Assembly (NCBI GenBank): GCA_965263355.1
Contig: CBDHHL010000032.1
Location: 1,120,001-1,184,000, forward strand
Source: Leptolyngbyaceae cyanobacterium
Lineage (GTDB): Bacteria > Cyanobacteriota > Cyanobacteriia > Phormidesmidales > Phormidesmidaceae
Reading direction: 5' to 3'
Length of the DNA stretch: 64,000 nt
Positions within the stretch are counted from its first letter, which is position 1, and the number at the start of each line of letters is the position of its first letter. The notes under the pieces were generated by a model. It saw only the letters and a program-made list of their open reading frames with translations, searched no databases and had not been told where the DNA came from. Below, piece by piece: positions 25,593 through 44,086 of the stretch. Both the position numbers and the translations under genes were made by a program.

Positions 25593-26109
25593 GAAAATCA
25601 AATCCTTGAGCTTCACCTCTCCAATCGTTTGCCAGTACTCTGTTCTTAAGGTTTGGACTCGGTCGGTGTGACGCTCGCTGGCGTGCAGTGTTTTTTTTTG
25701 CGGGTTAACCCCAAGGTTTGAGTAATTCGTCCCATCGTTGACCGGCTCACCCACACGGCTTCTTGCTTATCAACTAACACCTGAAGTTCTTCCAAGGTAG
25801 CATCATTGTTGGCTTCAATCAGGGTCTTAACCCGCTCTCGTTGCTCGGCATTCAGCAGGGGAGGATGACCACCACCATGCGCTTTCGGTTCAATCCCTTC
25901 ACCCTGACGCCATCGTTTGAGTAATCGTTGGACGCTGCTCAAACTGACTTGAAAGCGCTTGGCTAACTGACGTTGAGACATCCCTTCGTCTGTGTGAACG
26001 TCAATAATGCGCTGGCGTAAATCAAGAGAAAGAGGCTTCATTGGAATACGAATCAGTAGTGGTTTTAGGGGTCCTGATATTGTATTCAAAGCAAGCAGGA
26101 AACGCTATA
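25593..26109 (-). mobile_element. truncated IS630-family element (HTH orfA plus frameshifted start of orfB)
   Basis: ATG 26041 MKPLSLDLRQRII...SQRQLAKRFQVS (HTH), NNDATLEEL and LTRKKK at the A9 run 25691-25699. The -1 frame reads KTLHASER...KDLIF and breaks before the DDE Asp. Left end TA-GCGTTTCCTGC at about 26107. Confidence 0.88.
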
Positions 26110-33843: not shown

Positions 33844-34890
33844 CTAGGCCGTACGATGTTGATTTTGTAGTTGTCGACTCTTTGCTACGTGTTGGGCGGC
33901 TTCAACGGTAGAAATATTAGCACTGCTGGCATAATTAAAAATTTCTAGTAATGTACCATAGATACTGTGAATATGATTGTTTACCTTGGTTGTTTGGTAC
34001 CCAATTAATTCGTGATAGACATTAATAAGCCCACCCGCATTAATGACAAAATCAGGACAATAAAGAATCCCTTTTTGCTTGAGTGATACTGCATCTTGAG
34101 ATGCATTTGCTAGTTGGTTGTTTGCACACCCTGCAATAATTGGAGCCTTGATGTTTTGCAACGTAAATTGATTAATCACACCACCCAATGCACAGGGTGA
34201 AAATACATCGGCATCTAGCCCCATTATTTGATTAGGAGGAACAACGGTTGCTTGATAGCGTTGTTGTATCCAGGCTGTTTTCTGGGTATCTAAATCACTG
34301 ACAAACAACTGAGCACCTTGTTCTGATAGATCATGACAGAGGGCTTGGCCCACATTGCCTAAGCCTTGAATTGCTACTTTTAAGCCCCTCAGAGTGTGAG
34401 ATTGCCATCGAAATGCTACGGCTGCTTTAATGCCCAATAGCACACCTTGAGCTGTTGCGATCGCAGGTCCTCCTCCTTTTTCTTCAACTCCAACAACATG
34501 ATTAGTAATTTGATGCATGGTGCGAACATCTTGAGCATTCAGGTTAACGTCTTGCCCGGTAACAAATCGACCACCCAGGCTATCGACAAAACGAGCATAG
34601 GCTTTGAGTAAGGTGTCTGTTTTTGCATCAGGATGGGCAATAATTACCCCCTTTGCGCCTCCAACCGGAATCTTGGCACAAGCGGCCTTATAGGTCATGC
34701 CTCGGCTTAGGCGCAGAACATCTTTCAGAGCATCGGCTTCATCAGTGTAGGGCCAGAGACGCGTGGCCCCCATAGCCCACCCAGGTGTGGTGTCATGTAA
34801 GGCGATAATGGCCTTTAGCCCTGTAGCCCTATGGCGACAGTACAAAACCTGCTCGTGGTCTGAACTTTGAATTGTTTGAAAGAGTTCCAT
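33844..34890 (-). CDS. Glu/Leu/Phe/Val-family dehydrogenase, ScyB-like (probable tryptophan dehydrogenase)
   Basis: HEQV, MGATR, RLSRGMTYKAACA, GGAK, TGQDVN, VVGV, GLGNVG, PCALGG, ANNQL and NAGGLINVY. The substrate-pocket motifs match Nostoc ScyB, as recalled, rather than Bacillus LeuDH. Confidence 0.88.
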   Translation of the reverse strand: MELFQTIQSSDHEQVLYCRHRATGLKAIIALHDTTPGWAMGATRLWPYTDEADALKDVLRLSRGMTYKAACAKIPVGGAKGVIIAHPDAKTDTLLKAYARFVDSLGGRFVTGQDVNLNAQDVRTMHQITNHVVGVEEKGGGPAIATAQGVLLGIKAAVAFRWQSHTLRGLKVAIQGLGNVGQALCHDLSEQGAQLFVSDLDTQKTAWIQQRYQATVVPPNQIMGLDADVFSPCALGGVINQFTLQNIKAPIIAGCANNQLANASQDAVSLKQKGILYCPDFVINAGGLINVYHELIGYQTTKVNNHIHSIYGTLLEIFNYASSANISTVEAAQHVAKSRQLQNQHRTA

Positions 34891-34936
34891 GGTTTTGAGT
34901 TCTTAATACAATAACAGTCGACAATTATTGGGATGG

Positions 34937-36121
34937 TTAAGCTTGAGCACAAATCAGTGAAACCAGGGGCACGCCGTTATAACCAAAATTGAGGTAATGA
35001 TCAGCATGCTTTTGCAGAGTAAGTATGGGCGAGATGATCAAGGCATCAGTGCAGGAGGGGTTTAAGGTATAACCGCTCTGCTTTAGTCGGTTAACCCAGG
35101 ATTGAGCAGTTTCGTGGCGTTCAATACGGGCAGTGTTATCAGCTTTTAGTACATCAACAACTTCACGACCAAAGAAGCAGGTTTTTAAGCCATTTTTGCT
35201 TTGCTGATCAATTGCCAGAACGTCGATCATTTTGAAGACACTACTATAATGACGCCAGCAATTTTGAAATCGAATACGAAAGTCTGGCTCCAGATGATCG
35301 GTGTTAGGCTCAGATAAGACAATGAGTGCTGGATTGAGCTGATGCAGACGCTGTAGCATTTCTGTGCGTACATCTTGCCCAGCTTTATCACAAATATGAT
35401 GTAATGCAAAAGAAGCGTTTATGATAGGGCGATCACATTGATCCTTCAATTGTTGCCAGTCTTGAGCATTGAGATCTTCAATGCCATTACGAAACGCGGT
35501 AAAGGTAACATCAAGCCCAAGCTCATAGGCAGCAGCTAAGATTGTTTGTTGGGCTAGAGATAGGCTTTGTAATGAGGGTTCTATCCCAATAATGTTGACC
35601 CGTTGAGGTTTTCTATGTAGACAGGCTAACTGGTGAAGCAACTCGACCATTTGCCTGCCAGTCCCAATGCCGATATCAATCAGTGTGATATCATCGCGTC
35701 CATTGCAGGCGTCAATGAGTAAGCCGGTTGCGAGTTCGCTGATTTGTGAGACTAAAGGTACCTGGTTGGCTAACAGATTAAACAGTTGAATTTGTGGGAT
35801 TTCATAGGGTTTTAGGTAAAGATTGGCTTTGTCGGCCACACTATTAGAGAGGCGCTCTGCCAGGGCACGGGCAAAAATTAAATGAGCGATCGCATTGGAA
35901 TCAGTGGCGATATTGAGACTATCTAACAACTGGTTTAACTGAGCTTGAGCTGCACACATGTTCCCTTGCGCAATCAAATCTACAACGTTGAAAAGTCTCG
36001 TTTGATTCAAACTTGTTTGATTACGGTTAATGGTGACTGTGGGTTCAACCGGATAATGCTCTAACATCATCCTCACTCTAATATCAGTAATCGGTGCTAA
36101 TGTCTTCAGATTAGGTGTCAT
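34937..36121 (-). CDS. bacterial GRAS-family protein (Rossmann methyltransferase fold)
   Basis: FARAL, ITLIDIGIGTGRQ (VHIID equivalent with GxGxG), IIGIE, INASFALHH, LNPALIVLSE, RFxNCWRHY, FFGREV and RIERHE...W..RL..SGY. ATG 36121 with a GAGG RBS. Confidence 0.85.
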   Translation of the reverse strand: MTPNLKTLAPITDIRVRMMLEHYPVEPTVTINRNQTSLNQTRLFNVVDLIAQGNMCAAQAQLNQLLDSLNIATDSNAIAHLIFARALAERLSNSVADKANLYLKPYEIPQIQLFNLLANQVPLVSQISELATGLLIDACNGRDDITLIDIGIGTGRQMVELLHQLACLHRKPQRVNIIGIEPSLQSLSLAQQTILAAAYELGLDVTFTAFRNGIEDLNAQDWQQLKDQCDRPIINASFALHHICDKAGQDVRTEMLQRLHQLNPALIVLSEPNTDHLEPDFRIRFQNCWRHYSSVFKMIDVLAIDQQSKNGLKTCFFGREVVDVLKADNTARIERHETAQSWVNRLKQSGYTLNPSCTDALIISPILTLQKHADHYLNFGYNGVPLVSLICAQA

Positions 36122-36214
36122 CAGTGTGCCTCTTTCAATAGTTTGTGGACTCTCGATTAACAAAAGATTAGGCGACAACTTTTTATCTCGAATGGTGAAA
36201 GTATCTGGTGTGAC

Positions 36215-37036
36215 TTAAAAAGCCTGGTTGTCTCGGATGTGTGAGTCATTAAATAGAAGAGCGGTGGTTGCTTGCTGCATAATATCAGTCGTATCAAATA
36301 AATCGCCGTTGTAAATTTGGAGTTGTTCAGGGCAGTCTTGCCAAATTTGTTGCCAGCCGTCGGGAAAGCGGGTGTGATGGATGAGTTCAGCGCCATTGGG
36401 CCCCCAGGCTGCTTCAAATATCAGGCTGTCATTGTCTGATTCTGCGTCGGTATCGCCTGGCGTTTGAATGCCGAGACGGTCATAGAGATTAATCAGGGTT
36501 CCGTCCTGGGTGTAGCTTATGCCATTGCCACAGTAATCGGCTCTGGCCATGCGGGTGCAGGCCTGATGATAATCTCTTAGGGAAGTACCCTGCTCTGTTT
36601 GCCAAGGGCGATAGCCCCACAGGGCACATTTGGCGATAACACCGCTGGTGCAGGCAAATGTGATTTCGTCGTTGGCAACATAGGCTCCGGTGTCGTCCCA
36701 TTCACCCTGGAGGGGAATGACTTTAGTGCTGCCATCGGGAGCGGGGTTACACAGGTTATGCCACTCAAAGGTATCGGGGTCTTGATACTGGATGGTGTAG
36801 AGGTAGGTTTCTTGCTGGGGATCGTTGTTATCCAACTCTGGGTCGGTAACTTTGATGGTGAGAGATGCACCGCTGGTCGTTTCCAGGGTGGTGGGCCTAT
36901 CTTGCAGTTGTCCTTCAACATAGAAGGGGACCTGTAATGTTAATCCATGGCCTGGTAATACTGCTTGAGAGAAGCTTAGGGCCGAGACCGTAAGTAAAAG
37001 TGGATTGATTAGAGAGGATAGAGTTACGAATCGCAT
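36215..37036 (-). CDS. secreted ADYC-domain protein
   Basis: Signal-like N-terminus, then NLC, GEWD, TFAC...AKC..WGYRPW, HQACTRMARADYCGNG and FEAAWGPNGA. Confidence 0.85.
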   Translation of the reverse strand: MRFVTLSSLINPLLLTVSALSFSQAVLPGHGLTLQVPFYVEGQLQDRPTTLETTSGASLTIKVTDPELDNNDPQQETYLYTIQYQDPDTFEWHNLCNPAPDGSTKVIPLQGEWDDTGAYVANDEITFACTSGVIAKCALWGYRPWQTEQGTSLRDYHQACTRMARADYCGNGISYTQDGTLINLYDRLGIQTPGDTDAESDNDSLIFEAAWGPNGAELIHHTRFPDGWQQIWQDCPEQLQIYNGDLFDTTDIMQQATTALLFNDSHIRDNQAF

Positions 37037-37157: not shown

Positions 37158-37832
37158 TTATTTGGCAGCATGACCGTCTAATGAAGTGCCCTGTGTACCA
37201 TTGCTTTTAGGGGCATGACCACTTAAGGAGATGCCGTTGTGCATAGCTTTAGGGGCATGACCATTCAAGGAAGTGCTTTGGACAGCATGCCCTTTGGCAG
37301 CATGACCATTAGGAGCCTGTCCGTCTGGGGAGGAGCTGTTTATGGCCAATCTCTTAGGAGCTTGTCCGTCTAAGGAAGAGCTGTTTATGGCCAATCTCTT
37401 AGGAGCTTGTCCGTCTAAGGAAGAGCTGTTCGGTAATGTAACTTTAGGAGCCTGTTCGTTTAGGGAAGAGCCGTTTATGGCCAACCCCTTAGGAGCTTGT
37501 TCGTCTAAGGAAGAGCTGTTTTGACTGATTGCTTTAGGAGCCTGTCCGTTTAGGGAAGAGCTGTTAAACGTTGCTGCTTTAGGTGCATGACCATTTAAAG
37601 AAGTACCATTATTGATTGCTTTAGGAGCCTGTCCGCGTAAGGAAGAGCTGTTAAGCACTACTCTGTCCTTATCACTTTTGGGAGATAGTGGCTGGAAAAA
37701 GGAGGCTTTTGCCGAATTTGCTTTAGGGGATGAGTTTTCTAAAGAGACTGTGTTGGCATTGGCGATTGTTGTCAAGCTTAGTACAGATGTAAATGCACAA
37801 GCGGCGGCCATAGAGAAAGAAATGCGCTTCAT
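37158..37832 (-). CDS. secreted repeat protein with 11 x N(S/G)xSL(N/D)G(Q/H)APK units
   Basis: Sec-type signal MKRISFSMAAACAFTSVLSLTTIANA, an AGGAG RBS and repeats with a 42-45 bp period. Confidence 0.85.
   Translation of the reverse strand: MKRISFSMAAACAFTSVLSLTTIANANTVSLENSSPKANSAKASFFQPLSPKSDKDRVVLNSSSLRGQAPKAINNGTSLNGHAPKAATFNSSSLNGQAPKAISQNSSSLDEQAPKGLAINGSSLNEQAPKVTLPNSSSLDGQAPKRLAINSSSLDGQAPKRLAINSSSPDGQAPNGHAAKGHAVQSTSLNGHAPKAMHNGISLSGHAPKSNGTQGTSLDGHAAK
37161..37660 (-). repeat. ~45-bp coding tandem repeat array
   Basis: The unit gagctgtttatggccaatctcttaggagcttgtccgtctaaggaa is exactly duplicated at about 37333-37422, with diverged copies on both sides. Confidence 0.9.
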
Positions 37833-37896
37833 AGATTCAGACTCCTAATAGTTTGTGGGATTTTGGAAAGAACAGTTCGTTTGCTGTTCTGATAAC

Positions 37897-38049
37897 AGAG
37901 TATGGAAGTAGGCGTCCTGAAAACGTCCGCTGGCGTCCTGGGAAAAAATAGCGTTGATCCTATGGCTTGAGATACGTTCGTATCCCTTGAAATCACTAGG
38001 CTACAGTGCCAATGTGACGCGAAAACGTCCTGAAGCCTCAGGACGTTTT
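37897..38049 (-). promoter_or_regulatory. putative SARP-dependent promoter: phased GGACG(CC/TT) heptamers, -10 TACTCT and an upstream palindrome of the same motif
   Basis: Heptamers at 37932-37938, 37922-37928 and 37911-37917, an 8-bp spacer, then TACTCT at 37902-37897. AAAACGTCCTGA-agcc-TCAGGACGTTTT at 38022-38049. Confidence 0.6.
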
Positions 38050-38127: not shown

Positions 38128-41100
38128 TTATTCAACTGCCCCTAATGCTTTGAGTGCCGATTTTTGGGCCTCGGTTAATCCGGTGACATTGGCAATCTGC
38201 ATACCGGCGTAGGGTTTCAAAATATGAAAGGTAGAAAGGCGGGTGCCACTTTCCACATCCCAGAGGGTGATTTTCTCGTCCTCACCGCTGCAGGCCAACA
38301 GATGTCCGTTAGGATGAAGCGCCATAGACCATAGGGGAGCTTCGTGGGTAAGTACTTGCAGACATTCCCCTGTTTGCACATCCCAAATGCGGGCAGTGCC
38401 GTCATGGCTGGCACTGGCAATCAAGTGCCCATCTGGATGAATGGTCATGGCATATACCCAGCCGGTATGACCAGTGAGGGTACGGAAGCATTCGCTTGAT
38501 TGCAAATTCCATAGTTTAATGGTGCGATCGCCACTAGCACTAGCTAACCAAGTCTCAGGTAGATCATCCAAGGTAGCTCCAGACTGAGACGGACTAAACG
38601 CCACCGCATACATCCAATCGGTATGCTCCTGCAGCGTTTGGACGCATTCCCCAGATTCCACATCCCAAAGCTTGATCATATGATCAGCCCCAGCACTGGC
38701 CAGCTGTCGTCCATCGGGACTAAAGGCCACGGCCCAAACTTGGTTAGCATGTCCTGGCAGCTGCTGACAGCATTGCCCTGTGGTCAAATCCCAAATCCGC
38801 ACCACCGGTTGAATGCTGCCACTCGCTAATAGCTTTCCTTGGGGATGAAATGCTACACCATGGACCCACCCTGCCCGACCATCCAAAATTTGAATACTTC
38901 GGCCAGTGTCCCCATCCCACAGTCGAATGGTTTGATCAAATCCCCCTGTTGCTAGGATGGTTTGCAAGGTGCCGGACAGTTGCTGCTGAGCCACGGCCCA
39001 AACCCCACTGCTATGCCCTTCTAATGTCTTTAAACATTTGCCTGTCCGACTATCCCAAAGACGAATCAGGCTATCATCCCCGCCGCTAACCAGGGTGAAA
39101 TCATCATCACAAAAGGTGAGCGACCGAATGCAGTTGGTATATCCCTGCAGCGTTTGGACACATTGCTGTGTCTCCATATCCCACAACCGAATGGTTTGAT
39201 CAAAGCCACCGCTGGCTAACCTCTGCCCATCGGGACTAAAGCCCACTGCCCAGATTTGATCGGTGTGTCCTAGCAATGTGGCCAGACAGCTTTCGTTTTG
39301 GACATCCCACAAGCGCACCGTTTGATCATTACTGCCACTGGCGAGCATCTGTCCATCGGGGCTAAAGGCAATTGCCCAGATTTGATCGGTATGGGCCATC
39401 AACGTACTTAAGCATTGGCCCGTTTCAAGATCCCATAGACGAATCGTTTGGTCAGCTCCAGCGCTAGCAAGCATCTCTTGAGTGGGGTGTAGGGTAACGG
39501 ACCAAACCGGAGCCTGATGACCTTGAAAAACGGTAACACAGTCTCCTGAGTCCACATCCCACCAACGCACTACCTGAGCGGCATGCCCCGTGGCCAAATG
39601 AGTTCCCCTCGGATTAAAGGCTACAGAACGGACCAATCCCCCCTGGCTCTCCAGGGTGTGTAAACATTCGCCAGTTGTAGCATCCCACAGCTTGGCCGTT
39701 TGGTCTTCGCTGCCGCTAGCTACCCGCTGTCCATCGGGGCTAAAGGCCACGGACCACACCACGCTGGTGTGATCCTGCAGTATTTTCAAACATTGGCCTG
39801 AGGGTACATCCCAAAGCCGCACCGTATAGTCAACGCTGCCACTGACCAGGGTTTTGCCATCGGGGCTAAAGGCGATGGACCACACCCATCCCTTATGGCC
39901 CTGCAACGTCATCAGAGGTTGTCCATCAGTAACACGCCAAATCTGAACGTTGTAATTGTTGTCTCCCATCGCCAGGAGTGTCCCATCGGGACTAAAGGCA
40001 ATGGATAGAGCACTGCCAAAGGCCTGGGTAAACACCGACCTTACAAATTGTGCATGGGAAACATCGAGTTGGTGAAGCGTTGTTCCCTGAAGATAGGCCT
40101 GACGAATAGTGAGCTGGGAAAAATCTAAGTTGCTGGTGTCTAACTGGTTTTGACAGCAAAGATTGAGCAAATTCCCGCCGGCGTAGCTGGCACGATGAAC
40201 TTCGGTGTCGTGAATAGCCGTTAAAATCTGCTGAATTTGTTGCGTTAGGGCTATGGATGATGATGCTTGATTAACCTGCTCAAGGATGGGTTGCAAAATC
40301 AGGCGACATTGACTTTCACGAATAAAGTCTTGAACTGTTGCTTTGATGAGGGCATAGGCCGAGAGATGTGGCAGTTCAGCTGCAGCCTCCCTAAGTGTTT
40401 CGTCAAAATAGCTAATATCCAAAAGTTCATCGCTGACGGCTTCGATCAAACAGACCGTGACATATTCCATGACAACGGATTGTTGGGTGTAGGTATTACC
40501 CCGGCGTTCAATTAGCGATCGCCAACAGAGCGACTCTAGGGTTTCCAACAACAGTCGTTTAGAACACCGAGGATAAATATCAGCCCTCAGCTCTGGAATG
40601 CTGGTCCACTCCCGGTTAATCGCCAGCCAATACATCACCGTCTTTTCTAGAGGACTGAGCCGATCAAATTGTCGATCAAGTAGCTTTTTTGCGCCGTTAA
40701 ATAGAAGGGTATCCTCTTCTAAAAAAAGAGAGATGTCTCCGGAAAACACATCCCGTATCGAACCGCCGACAATTTGCAATGCCAAAGGGCTATATCCATA
40801 TCGTTTCCCCAGTTGTTCTTTTTGCACCTGGGTACCGACCAGTTGCTTAGCGTCTAGTACTGCCAGAGCGGCTTCGGGAGAACCAGCAACTTGGAGCGAT
40901 CGCACCGACTGGTTGATGCTTTCAAATGTCGAAATTTCAGCCGGTTTTTCACGACTTGTGATCATCAGGCAGCTCTGATGATTTGCCTGTCCCACCACTT
41001 GAATCAATTCACCGTAGTTTTCATAGCCGTCTCGAAACTGTCCGGCGCGTTCGCCTCCCTTGAGGATGGTTTCGCAATTATCCAAAACTACCAGACACCG

Positions 41101-42378
41101 GGATTGTCGTAGCCAGTGCATCAAGCGGTTTGTGGAACAGGCAGTGTCCTGTTGATTTGACAAAAAAGGAATTAAATCATTGAGTAACGTTTCTAGGGGC
41201 GGCGCATTGCGAAGCGATCGCCAAATCAGGTGGTCAAATTCCCCTTGTAGTTCCTGAGCTATTTTGGCAACTAGTGCCGTTTTACCAATGCCCCCCATTC
41301 CCAGCACGGCGGTCAGTCGACAGGAGTTTTCAACAATCCATCGCCGCAACTGAGCCAGTTCATCCGTGCGACCGTAGAAGAACTCAATGTCAGGGGCTTC
41401 GCCCCAGTCAATAGACGTCTTTGCCTGGGGCAAGGCTCGATCATCTTTGATATTGAGCCCTTGATCTGAGGAGGACTCGTTGCTATCTGTAGCTACATTG
41501 GATTCTGAGAACAAGGTAGCTGTGGTAGCCTCGGAAGTAGGCGTTTCCCAGCCTGGTACCACGATATCGGTATCCGAAAACTCTCTTGTCGGTAAACTAT
41601 CTGAAATTTGGCTGGTAACTACCTGGGGGGTATCGTCTAGTGTGAGTAACTCTTCATACAAGCTGCAGGTACTAGGACTGGGTGGCATGCCCAATTCCTC
41701 TTGCAGTAAAGTCATGCATTGATGATAGATACGCATGGCAGTGGCGCGATCACCCTTTTGGGCATGCAGCTGCATGAGGTGACAATAGGCCAGCTCTGAG
41801 AGTGGATCTAACTCACATAATTGCTGCGCATATTCAATGGCTGAACTCAGCTGGCCTTGTTCTGTTAGCTGGGTAATCAAGGTATCCAGTGCTTTGATTG
41901 CTTGCTGTCGCATGCGATCGCGATAGGGCTCAATCCAGTCGTCATAACACTCTGGCAATAAATCTCCCTGGTAGAGTTTAGCGGCTTGCTTCAAGTCTTT
42001 GAGGGAACTGGTTTGAAATACTTGTTCGTTGATTACTTGTTCGTTTATCAGTGCTTCAAAACGGTCTATATCTAACGCACACCCCTTACCCATGACCCAC
42101 TGAACCGTTTTAGGCTTAACCTGCAGCCAGCGTTCGCTCTCAGGGATATGTTGCTTCAGTTCATGCAATCGTCGTCTTAAGTTGGCTTTAGCGTTAGTAT
42201 CCGTTGCGTCAGGCCAAAGAGTTGCCGCTATTTGCTGTCGAGATAGTGGTTCATCTCGATGCAGTAAAATAAATGCCAATAATGCCTGTAAGCGTTCAGA
42301 CTTTACCCCACTGATGGGCACAGTATCAGCACTGAGGGAAAACTTGCCCAATAGTTGAATCTGCAGTTGGGTAGACAC
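38128..42378 (-). CDS. SARP/AfsR-type regulator: wHTH-BTAD + NB-ARC (STAND) ATPase + pentapeptide + WD40 repeats
   Basis: IQLLGKF, LLAFILLH, LWPD, LYQGDLL and LDPLSE (BTAD). DWGEAP, Walker A GMGGIGKT, Walker B LVVLDN and ITSRE. About 14 WD40 repeats and a C-terminal PYAGMQI...LKALGAVE. Confidence 0.93.
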   Translation of the reverse strand: MSTQLQIQLLGKFSLSADTVPISGVKSERLQALLAFILLHRDEPLSRQQIAATLWPDATDTNAKANLRRRLHELKQHIPESERWLQVKPKTVQWVMGKGCALDIDRFEALINEQVINEQVFQTSSLKDLKQAAKLYQGDLLPECYDDWIEPYRDRMRQQAIKALDTLITQLTEQGQLSSAIEYAQQLCELDPLSELAYCHLMQLHAQKGDRATAMRIYHQCMTLLQEELGMPPSPSTCSLYEELLTLDDTPQVVTSQISDSLPTREFSDTDIVVPGWETPTSEATTATLFSESNVATDSNESSSDQGLNIKDDRALPQAKTSIDWGEAPDIEFFYGRTDELAQLRRWIVENSCRLTAVLGMGGIGKTALVAKIAQELQGEFDHLIWRSLRNAPPLETLLNDLIPFLSNQQDTACSTNRLMHWLRQSRCLVVLDNCETILKGGERAGQFRDGYENYGELIQVVGQANHQSCLMITSREKPAEISTFESINQSVRSLQVAGSPEAALAVLDAKQLVGTQVQKEQLGKRYGYSPLALQIVGGSIRDVFSGDISLFLEEDTLLFNGAKKLLDRQFDRLSPLEKTVMYWLAINREWTSIPELRADIYPRCSKRLLLETLESLCWRSLIERRGNTYTQQSVVMEYVTVCLIEAVSDELLDISYFDETLREAAAELPHLSAYALIKATVQDFIRESQCRLILQPILEQVNQASSSIALTQQIQQILTAIHDTEVHRASYAGGNLLNLCCQNQLDTSNLDFSQLTIRQAYLQGTTLHQLDVSHAQFVRSVFTQAFGSALSIAFSPDGTLLAMGDNNYNVQIWRVTDGQPLMTLQGHKGWVWSIAFSPDGKTLVSGSVDYTVRLWDVPSGQCLKILQDHTSVVWSVAFSPDGQRVASGSEDQTAKLWDATTGECLHTLESQGGLVRSVAFNPRGTHLATGHAAQVVRWWDVDSGDCVTVFQGHQAPVWSVTLHPTQEMLASAGADQTIRLWDLETGQCLSTLMAHTDQIWAIAFSPDGQMLASGSNDQTVRLWDVQNESCLATLLGHTDQIWAVGFSPDGQRLASGGFDQTIRLWDMETQQCVQTLQGYTNCIRSLTFCDDDFTLVSGGDDSLIRLWDSRTGKCLKTLEGHSSGVWAVAQQQLSGTLQTILATGGFDQTIRLWDGDTGRSIQILDGRAGWVHGVAFHPQGKLLASGSIQPVVRIWDLTTGQCCQQLPGHANQVWAVAFSPDGRQLASAGADHMIKLWDVESGECVQTLQEHTDWMYAVAFSPSQSGATLDDLPETWLASASGDRTIKLWNLQSSECFRTLTGHTGWVYAMTIHPDGHLIASASHDGTARIWDVQTGECLQVLTHEAPLWSMALHPNGHLLACSGEDEKITLWDVESGTRLSTFHILKPYAGMQIANVTGLTEAQKSALKALGAVE

Positions 42379-42690: not shown

Positions 42691-43538
42691 CACATACAAA
42701 TGTCCTAACAGAGGATATACGTCAGCTTACTGGCCCAAGATTGCTTCAACAAGCTGGTCTTAAGCGTGGTGAGTTAGATTTATTAACTGGGTGTCCTCCA
42801 TGTCAAGGGTTTTCAACATTGCGGACTAAGCGGCGTAATCAAAAAAATGATGATCAGAGGAATGACCTAATTCGGGAAGTCTTACGTTTAGTTCGTTCTA
42901 TGCGACCAAGATCCGTTCTCATAGAGAATGTTCCAGGTTTAGCGAAAGATCGGAGATTTGCAGATTTTAGAAAAGGCTTGAAAAAATCTGGTTATTTTTC
43001 AGACTATGAAATTCTAAATGCGGCAGACTTTGGTGTTCCACAACGTCGTCGTCGTTTAGTACTTGTTGCCTTTCGAGGTATGGATGTGCCCAGTGGTTGG
43101 TCTTGTTACAAATCCGCCGAGAAGCATGTCAGGCAGACTATTTCTCATTTGTCTACCTCAGCTGGCTCTAGTGGAGATCCGCTACATGATATTCCAGAAC
43201 GAAGAACACCAGCTATGATGGCCAGAATAAAAGCTACTCCCAAAGATGGTGGTAGTCGCAAAGATTTACCTCCAGAAATGCAGTGTGAATGTCATATTCG
43301 TGGAGATGGATATTTTGATGTTTATGGAAGGATGGCATGGGATGATATTGCTCCTACTATTACTAGTGGATGTAGTAATCCTTCTAAGGGACGATTTTTG
43401 CATCCTGAGGAGGATCGAGCAATCATTCTCCGAGAAGCTGCACTGCTACAAACATTTCCAATAAATTATAAGTTTTGTCTTGAACGCGGGAAGGATCATG
43501 TCTTGAATCTAATAATGTTTCTAAGGAATTTAGTGTAG
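42690..43538 (+). pseudogene. DNA (cytosine-5) methyltransferase truncated at both ends
   Basis: EDI, motif IV GCPPCQGFS, VI ENV, VIII GVPQRRRR, TRD YGR..PTIT and IX REAALLQTFP are present. Motif I FxGxGG and motif X GNAV are absent. Confidence 0.85.
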
Positions 43539-44086
43539 TGGTTCAAAGAGGTGGAACTGCAATCCGCTCCAATCAACTTTATCGAGATATCAAAGCTTTT
43601 GCTAACTCTGGGAGAAAAAATATTTTTATTATTTTTGATGGTGATCATTATCCTGAAAGAGTTATTCCAGAAGATGGTCTCTTGCCACAAGGTGAAAAGG
43701 AAATAAAGGGTCTGATTAACGATATTACAAAAGGTAATAATTCTAAAGGTCCTAATCTAAACTTTGAAGATGTAGATGATATGACACGCTACATTCAATT
43801 TTTTCGACAGTTTATTTATTTCCTCCCGGCCCGTACGCCTGAGGAATTGGTTTGGAATAATGATGTTGCAAAAGAACTCTTAAAAAAAGAAGTTCCCAAG
43901 AGCATTTTAGGGGTAAAAAGTTATAAACAAAAAATCGCTATGCTTGCAGATATACTTCCAGGAGTCGATCCTGAAGCAGTGTTTCAATTTCTACTGTTAG
44001 GTTTCCTGAGTCGAGATAGTGAGCTCAAGTCAGAACTCATGGAACGTATTCAAGAGATTCGCTCATATCTTGCTACCAAATTGTAG
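43502..44086 (+). pseudogene. C-terminal fragment of a probable OLD/TOPRIM-type ATP-dependent nuclease
   Basis: GG...IFIIFDGD (TOPRIM DxD-like) and LP..TPEE. The frame is open upstream of the GTG to the Dcm junction, and there is no ATPase domain. AT-rich. Confidence 0.5.

Follow-up and report, generated by a model that had tools for sequence, protein, structure and literature searches.

What does a GRAS protein do in a bacterium? A cavity resembling that of an enzyme is present in the GRAS proteins of plants (DELLA, SHR, SCR, NSP). The idea that their bacterial counterparts are methylases, ancestral to the plant proteins, goes back to 2012 (Zhang, Iyer, and Aravind, Bioinformatics 28:2407, as cited in the available text of PMC4279901 and PMC9474926). 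A transfer of GRAS genes from soil bacteria to plants is described in the available part of PMC10699852. We found no published activity or substrate of a bacterial GRAS protein, nor a published match to a metal triad, in a literature search that missed subscription journals. The methylase claim is old at the level of the family; what makes it testable is the pairing with a dehydrogenase gene and the putative triad of metal ligands, both described below. The locus supplies a small soluble protein, a candidate substrate, the enzyme that would make this substrate, and three residues to mutate. It lies in a stretch of 64,000 nucleotides, here called the window, in which we recognized psaA/psaB-like open reading frames, presumably those of a cyanobacterial host.

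The GRAS protein and its conserved positions

The gene is located at 34937..36121 on the minus strand and, counted from its ATG, encodes 394 amino acids. An in-frame TTG start, which would add 19 residues, is less favored, as DNA homology with Leptothoe spongobia stops just above the ATG and a purine run resembling a ribosome site is kept at that same place. The protein matches the Pfam GRAS model PF03514 with 149.6 bits against a cut-off of 27 (E 1.5e-43) and aligns collinearly with the DELLA protein RGA over residues 47-351 (E 1.4e-15). Its AlphaFold model (pLDDT 91), in which around 28 disordered N-terminal residues precede a helical cap and a class I methyltransferase core, matches SCL3 with a Z of 38.3 and an rmsd of 2.6 over 347 residues in a structure comparison. 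The Pfam search and the structure prediction that an earlier note on this DNA had proposed as checks have both come out in its favor, and the open reading frame is confirmed as a full GRAS domain whose match is far above chance. The Pfam match ends at profile position 325 of 374, so that the plant SAW block is unmatched by sequence, and the protein has none of the marks of a plant-type GRAS regulator, namely a SAW sequence, a long variable N-terminus, and lost SAM motifs.

The sequence blocks that the earlier note had read in the order of the plant proteins are all there and in that order: F83-L87, I145-Q157 (with G151, G153, and G155), I177-E181, I234-H242, P264-E271, R284-F296, G318-V321, R332-E337, W342, R345-L346, and G350-Y351. 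One detail has to be amended: in the block written as RF...HY..F, located at R284-F296, HY is separated from F by three residues instead of two.

The SAM motifs, described in the same note as intact, are indeed complete, and they include one acid more than it had listed. The motif I glycine loop (G151-G155, 35657..35671, minus strand, as are all positions in this section) keeps G151 in 126 of 127 and G153 in all 127 cluster representatives, with a strict GxGxG in 113 of 127; these representatives come from the top 150 among 1789 matches of a profile that we built, and the sample thus leans toward conservation. E181 (35579..35581), the acid that ends strand 2 at the ribose-binding position, is D or E in 127/128 and has Asp77 as its counterpart in CysG (for the role in CysG, see the available text of PMC11408123). 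The additional acid, E215 (35477..35479), stands after strand 3 at what we infer to be the adenine-binding position; it is E in 125/128 and Ala in RGA. G151, G153, and an acid at both 181 and 215 occur together in 124 of the 127 representatives that cover them. The protein thereby has the glycine loop after strand 1 and the acids after strands 2 and 3 of a class I SAM methyltransferase, and the motifs point to G151-G155, E181, and E215 as its SAM-binding site.

A second group of positions may bind a metal. H241 and H242 (35396..35401), which match His122-His123 of CysG and are candidate ligands, are kept in 126/128 and 122/128 representatives, and E334, within the R332-E337 block (35111..35128), corresponds in the alignment to Asp191, which is the third ligand of the metal in CysG, and is kept in 120/126 as well as in RGA and SCL3. 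All three positions, with E or D at 334, are found together in 115/126, and we take H241, H242, and E334 as the putative metal site. Another conserved His, H291 (35249..35251; 117/128, Tyr in RGA), located in the helix after strand 5, is a candidate substrate contact or metal ligand.

Partner enzymes and gene neighborhoods

The next gene (33844..34890, minus strand) begins 46 nt downstream of the GRAS gene and encodes a tryptophan-dehydrogenase-like protein. Its best PDB match is 5b37, the tryptophan dehydrogenase from Nostoc (E 1.7e-128), and a tree built from 30 cyanobacterial sequences places it, on a long branch, in the ScyB clade (support 1.0); on the ScyB model NF035922, it scores 526.7, below the cut-off of 600. 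With the ScyB clade, it shares M40, I74, G112, Q113, and Y292; the corresponding residues of the LeuDH-like group are L, L, A, E, and W. These positions presumably line the substrate pocket of the dehydrogenase. The ScyB group has around 59% identity to the partner and the same residues at the compared positions except V110. NpR1275 is a tryptophan dehydrogenase according to the available text of PMC3252866. ScyB genes have scyA and scyC as neighbors, whereas the window partner is not in a scytonemin cluster.

The two genes form a cassette (33844..36139, minus strand) that is shared with L. spongobia at 81.6% DNA identity, with no other blastn hit in that locus. GRAS and dehydrogenase genes occur together in all three close loci, those of the window, of L. 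spongobia (L001), and of a further genome, G430 (L133), and the flanks differ. The neighbor is a conserved tryptophan-dehydrogenase-like partner, judging by the 5b37 match, the ScyB clade, and the retention of the cassette, and indole-3-pyruvate, suggested as the substrate in the earlier note, is consequently a sound local candidate. As the three loci are 75% identical and belong to close relatives, they represent about one acquisition.

Upstream of the cassette, the window has three more genes on the minus strand: that of an ADYC-domain protein (36215..37036; PF20032, E 1.6e-53), that of a repeat protein with 15-residue repeats, a signal-peptide-like start, and no family (37158..37832), and that of a STAND-type wHTH-BTAD-NB-ARC-WD40 regulator (38128..42378), a gene similar to the NB-ARC-WD40 gene that flanks the cassette in G430. 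The first two are best regarded as local neighbors. We recognized no ADYC open reading frame in L001 or L133, and in G001, where the control matched nowhere, this gene was unmatched as well; the repeat protein, which has no family and whose gene lies outside the cassette DNA shared with L. spongobia, was set aside as a conserved partner or substrate.

This part of the window has several features of its own. The repeat gene (37158-37832, minus strand) has a 45-nt period with around 6 to 8 copies and is followed by the ADYC gene, both of them downstream of the regulator gene. At 37911-37940, upstream of the repeat gene, there is a 9-nt direct repeat with 21-nt spacing and a partial copy in between, which may be due to chance; the spacing would suit a winged-helix regulator. 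One 12-nt word is found just upstream of both the repeat gene (around 37850-37862) and the GRAS gene (36137-36149) on the minus strand and is not kept in L. spongobia, and a promoter scan gave results below shuffled levels. Elsewhere in the window, a low-GC C5 DNA methylase reading frame (42741-44086, plus strand) begins mid-domain beside an unknown one, and a transposase-like HTH fragment lies at 25646-26089 (minus strand).

The flanks of the other two cassettes contain peptide precursor genes. In L001, a precursor with nine leader-core-NHNE units lies downstream of the dehydrogenase gene (L001:10319-11812), with an NHLP-type exporter nearby, and in L133 (1366-17134), there are several NHNE precursors and the NB-ARC-WD40 gene, and the GRAS protein is fused to one unit. 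Together with P0005, P0006, and P0012, these precursors share a double-glycine-type leader, a variable core that is often C-x-P-W-x-C-G, and NHNE, with up to around 10 units per gene. Such loci have several precursor genes each, adjoining an NB-ARC-WD40 gene and a haem-oxygenase-like gene, and some of the units are fused to GRAS. DUF5836 and the CTB-family bacteriocin are the only models that passed their cut-offs, no published NHNE peptides were found among the matches listed, and the whole looks like an undescribed peptide system.

Beyond the cassette, a direct search found at least 179 GRAS relatives, and a scan of the genome collection with the single GRAS protein found one locus only. GRAS genes are rare in cyanobacteria (2/401 across the phylum, 2/172 in this order, and 6/401 in another). 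Fusions to TerB are present in 15 of the 120 listed GRAS homologs, and the window's clade nests among TerB-fused relatives with a support of 0.96 in a tree that was built without plant sequences, from which we do not conclude that the plant proteins are closest to this clade; the nesting suggests acquisition by transfer. No viral copies were found, and weak tests turned up neither longer fused forms nor plant forms.

Enzymes of amino acids and 2-oxo acids recur beside these relatives. A class I/II aminotransferase gene lies directly downstream of GRAS in 19 of 80 metagenome loci and anywhere in 24, with none seen in the other 56; many of the contigs are short, and 65 of the 80 loci have at least 300 nt downstream. 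The five loci that separate the two counts have an opposite-strand HisC (one), genes that end signaling cassettes (three), and a partial upstream gene (one). Eighteen of the 19 could be placed in the tree, where they form one clade with 15 groups at 70% identity. Five directly adjacent aminotransferases were tested and are HisC-like, below the HisC cut-off; since such partners also score against the CobD decarboxylase, they need not make 2-oxo acids. GRAS and aminotransferase domains are also fused, in both orders. One cluster, with partial members that bear the name Bacteroidales, has three full-length fusion proteins, and a cluster from Streptomyces has two, in which PRK03321 is the best match of the enzyme half; the two clusters sit in different parts of the GRAS tree. 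One locus has an alanine dehydrogenase gene upstream of GRAS. Enzymes connecting amino acids with 2-oxo acids thus recur in at least three lineages, although the majority of loci have none. No dehydrogenase was seen beside the cyanobacterial GRAS genes outside the cassette clade.

Other contexts involve signaling genes. In 15/80 metagenome loci, a gene with an unknown DUF2378-like domain forms a cassette with one for a SpoIIE phosphatase, and genes of the slr1658/slr1659-like, cyclase, and PilZ kinds frequently accompany them. For instance, L060, L064, L066, L067, L071, L076, and others have GRAS, an unknown 180-residue domain for which DUF2378 is the lead, the phosphatase, slr1658-like and slr1659-like genes, a cyclase, and PilZ. 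In L134 (5884-9215), two TerB genes and a gene with a weak resemblance to CDPS come after a distant cyanobacterial GRAS gene, and in L178 (2698-7917), a beta-eliminating-lyase gene is lined up with those for a remote GRAS-like methyltransferase (E 4e-11; PF03514 does not match it at 1e-4), for a 2OG-Fe dioxygenase, and for an aminotransferase of class V. The GRAS gene of G744 is split across two open reading frames (L177:5248-6139), and two cyanobacteria, L. spongobia among them, have close homologs of MppJ (E 1.8e-70; L086:1453-2439 and L087:1435-2436).

A candidate reaction and its alternatives

Among 48,161 chains, the nearest folds outside the GRAS family were BelI (Z 19.4), CmoA (19.4), and MM_2633 (19.2), and the next reached 16.2; the 2-oxo-acid C-methylases SgvM, MrsA, and MppJ had 15.7, 14.5, and 14.4. 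A profile-profile comparison matched the bacterial GRAS proteins to a CysG-like family with a probability of 97.7 (E 1.7e-12), and in that alignment, the two HH pairs coincide and E334 falls on the Asp corresponding to Asp191 of CysG; this mapping is transitive, with a cyanobacterial CysG-like protein as the bridge, and was obtained by alignment. A His-His pair after strand 4 is common in class I methyltransferases. In CysG and BelI, His122, His123, and Asp191 hold the divalent metal with which a carboxylate is methylated (available text of PMC11408123), and the window protein has, in the transitive alignment, the same His-His pair and distal acid, with Glu replacing Asp. It may work like CysG and BelI, yet it is not a member of their family, which the GRAS profile did not match at E 10.

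Taking the protein and its partner together, we consider the chances about even that the GRAS protein is a metal-assisted SAM methyltransferase that acts on indole-3-pyruvate or a direct derivative, working with the product of the next gene. The ScyB-clade dehydrogenase would interconvert L-tryptophan and indole-3-pyruvate, a step well supported by homology. The GRAS protein would bind SAM through G151-G155, E181, and E215, as its motifs suggest, and a metal on H241, H242, and E334 would, according to the alignment, bind the acid in the cavity under the helical cap, possibly assisted by H291 and R332. Both candidate-ligand loops correspond, by our reading of the model, to the cavity walls named for SHR in the available text of PMC5873383. 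The methyl group could then go to the carboxylate, giving a methyl ester as with CysG and BelI, or to C3, as with MppJ and SgvM; the ester is slightly ahead of the C-methylation that the earlier note had favored. The product would probably be a diffusible signal or a building block, and relatives paired with aminotransferases may carry out the same reaction on other 2-oxo acids.

C3-methylation of indole-3-pyruvate, with the dehydrogenase acting in reverse, would give beta-methyl-tryptophan, and we regard this outcome, already counted within the even estimate above, as rather unlikely when taken alone. Genes for beta-methyl amino acids usually combine a methyltransferase with an aminotransferase or dehydrogenase, and the C-methyltransferases MarI and Ind1 act on indolepyruvate. 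MppJ, SgvM, and MrsA are among the first non-GRAS hits of Foldseek by E-value, with TM-scores near 0.4, although their structural Z values are just 14.4-15.7. Among methyltransferases outside the GRAS family, SgvM gives the best match to the bacterial GRAS profile (E 0.057, over a stretch that spans both His); it holds Zn with H244 and H296 (available text of PMC10502145), a spacing that resembles that of H241 and H291. Nevertheless, when the two were compared profile to profile, with a two-sequence profile, the match was weak (probability 69.7), and only the first metal His aligned, the second, around 52 residues away, falling off H291. The match to the MrsA model TIGR04543 was dismissed, at 20.7 bits against a cut-off of 425 for a non-specific model that matches 179/301 cyanobacterial genomes, and the window showed no NRPS that could take up the product. 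Of the indolmycin-type analogy drawn in the earlier note, the substrate candidate stands, and the C-methylation is less well supported, as the structure is nearer to BelI and CysG and the second His did not align in the profile comparison. It is likewise rather doubtful that the protein uses SAM on a different substrate or in a different chemistry, methylating tryptophan itself or a later product, or employing SAM for something other than methyl transfer, as CmoA does. CmoA/YecO ties with BelI as the nearest fold, and the partners of the relatives vary, with the TerB pair and CDPS-like gene in one locus, alanine dehydrogenase in another, and none in many; against this, the link to the dehydrogenase is tight in the window's clade and, to our knowledge, CmoA, which is not a methyl donor enzyme, lacks the His-His-acid triad.

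Many relatives without an enzyme partner sit among signaling genes, and for this reason we have kept a non-catalytic role in view, in which the protein would read indole-3-pyruvate or SAM/SAH and act on nearby signaling proteins, foreshadowing plant GRAS. We consider it unlikely. The SpoIIE cassettes described above are consistent with such a sensor, as are LytTR or kinase genes near some loci, GAF-kinase genes upstream in two cyanobacteria, STAND regulators in two of the three cassette loci, fusions to CBS and TerB, and the plant proteins, which have a cavity and no bound SAM (available text of PMC5873383). However, signaling genes would also be natural neighbors of an enzyme producing or altering the signal, and the near-invariant SAM and metal positions across clades and the enzyme fusions in two orders fit catalysis. 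Much less probable, and in our estimate very unlikely, is a role in tailoring a RiPP, in which the protein would methylate the NHNE-ending multi-core peptides with double-glycine leaders that its closest relatives have as neighbors or as fusion partners. One to four such units are fused N-terminally in 3/120 listed homologs, and two of the three cassette loci have the precursors already mentioned, but no NHNE unit is present in the 64 kb of the window or near GRAS in the 80 metagenome loci, where the few short motif matches looked like chance, and a dehydrogenase of free tryptophan has no clear part in such a pathway.

Comparison with known GRAS proteins and methyltransferases

If the window protein is active as a metal-assisted methyltransferase, this would be the first known reaction for a bacterial GRAS protein and a hint at the ligand of the ancestral plant pocket; if it is inactive, it just adds another member to a family already known. 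Indole-3-pyruvate is a metabolite of the auxin pathway. A broader and quite improbable idea is that the bacterial GRAS family consists of metal-dependent synthases whose products are methylated 2-oxo acids that serve as signals, the one from this locus being methylated indole-3-pyruvate, read by adjacent STAND, kinase, or phosphatase modules, in which case the His and ERHE of plant proteins would be a relic of the metal and carboxylate site and a ligand class would be named for the orphan cavity of DELLA, SHR, and SCL proteins.

The bacterial GRAS proteins of 2012 are, like the window protein, stand-alone GRAS domains with a Rossmann methyltransferase fold; the window protein differs in being paired with a ScyB-clade dehydrogenase, and three of its close relatives differ in being fused to peptide-precursor repeats. 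The plant proteins RGA, SCL3, SCL7, SHR, and SCR have the cap and core fold in common with it (Z 33-38), whereas they have long variable N-termini in place of its short disordered segment. RGA and SCL3 share H241, E271, W342, and the ERHE block with the window protein; RGA is without G151, G153, E181, E215, H242, and H291, and SCL3 is without the glycine loop, E181, H242, and H291. According to the available text of PMC5873383, plant GRAS proteins keep the cavity, yet one ITC test found no SAM binding.

MppJ, SgvM, and MrsA resemble the window protein in their class I fold, in the metal-binding His after strand 4, and in the pairing with enzymes of amino acids or 2-oxo acids, but their N-terminal dimer domain does not align with GRAS and their second metal His did not pair with H291 in the profile comparison. 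CysG/BelI and MM_2633 superpose on the GRAS model with Z values of 19.2-19.8 and rmsd values of 2.7-3.2 over around 205-210 residues, and CysG/BelI have their His-His pair after strand 4 and their distal acid in the same register as H241, H242, and E334. Unlike the window protein, to which they have 10-15% identity, they are compact single domains of around 230 residues without the GRAS helical cap, their third ligand is Asp and not Glu, and their substrates are alkylmalates of beta-lactone pathways.
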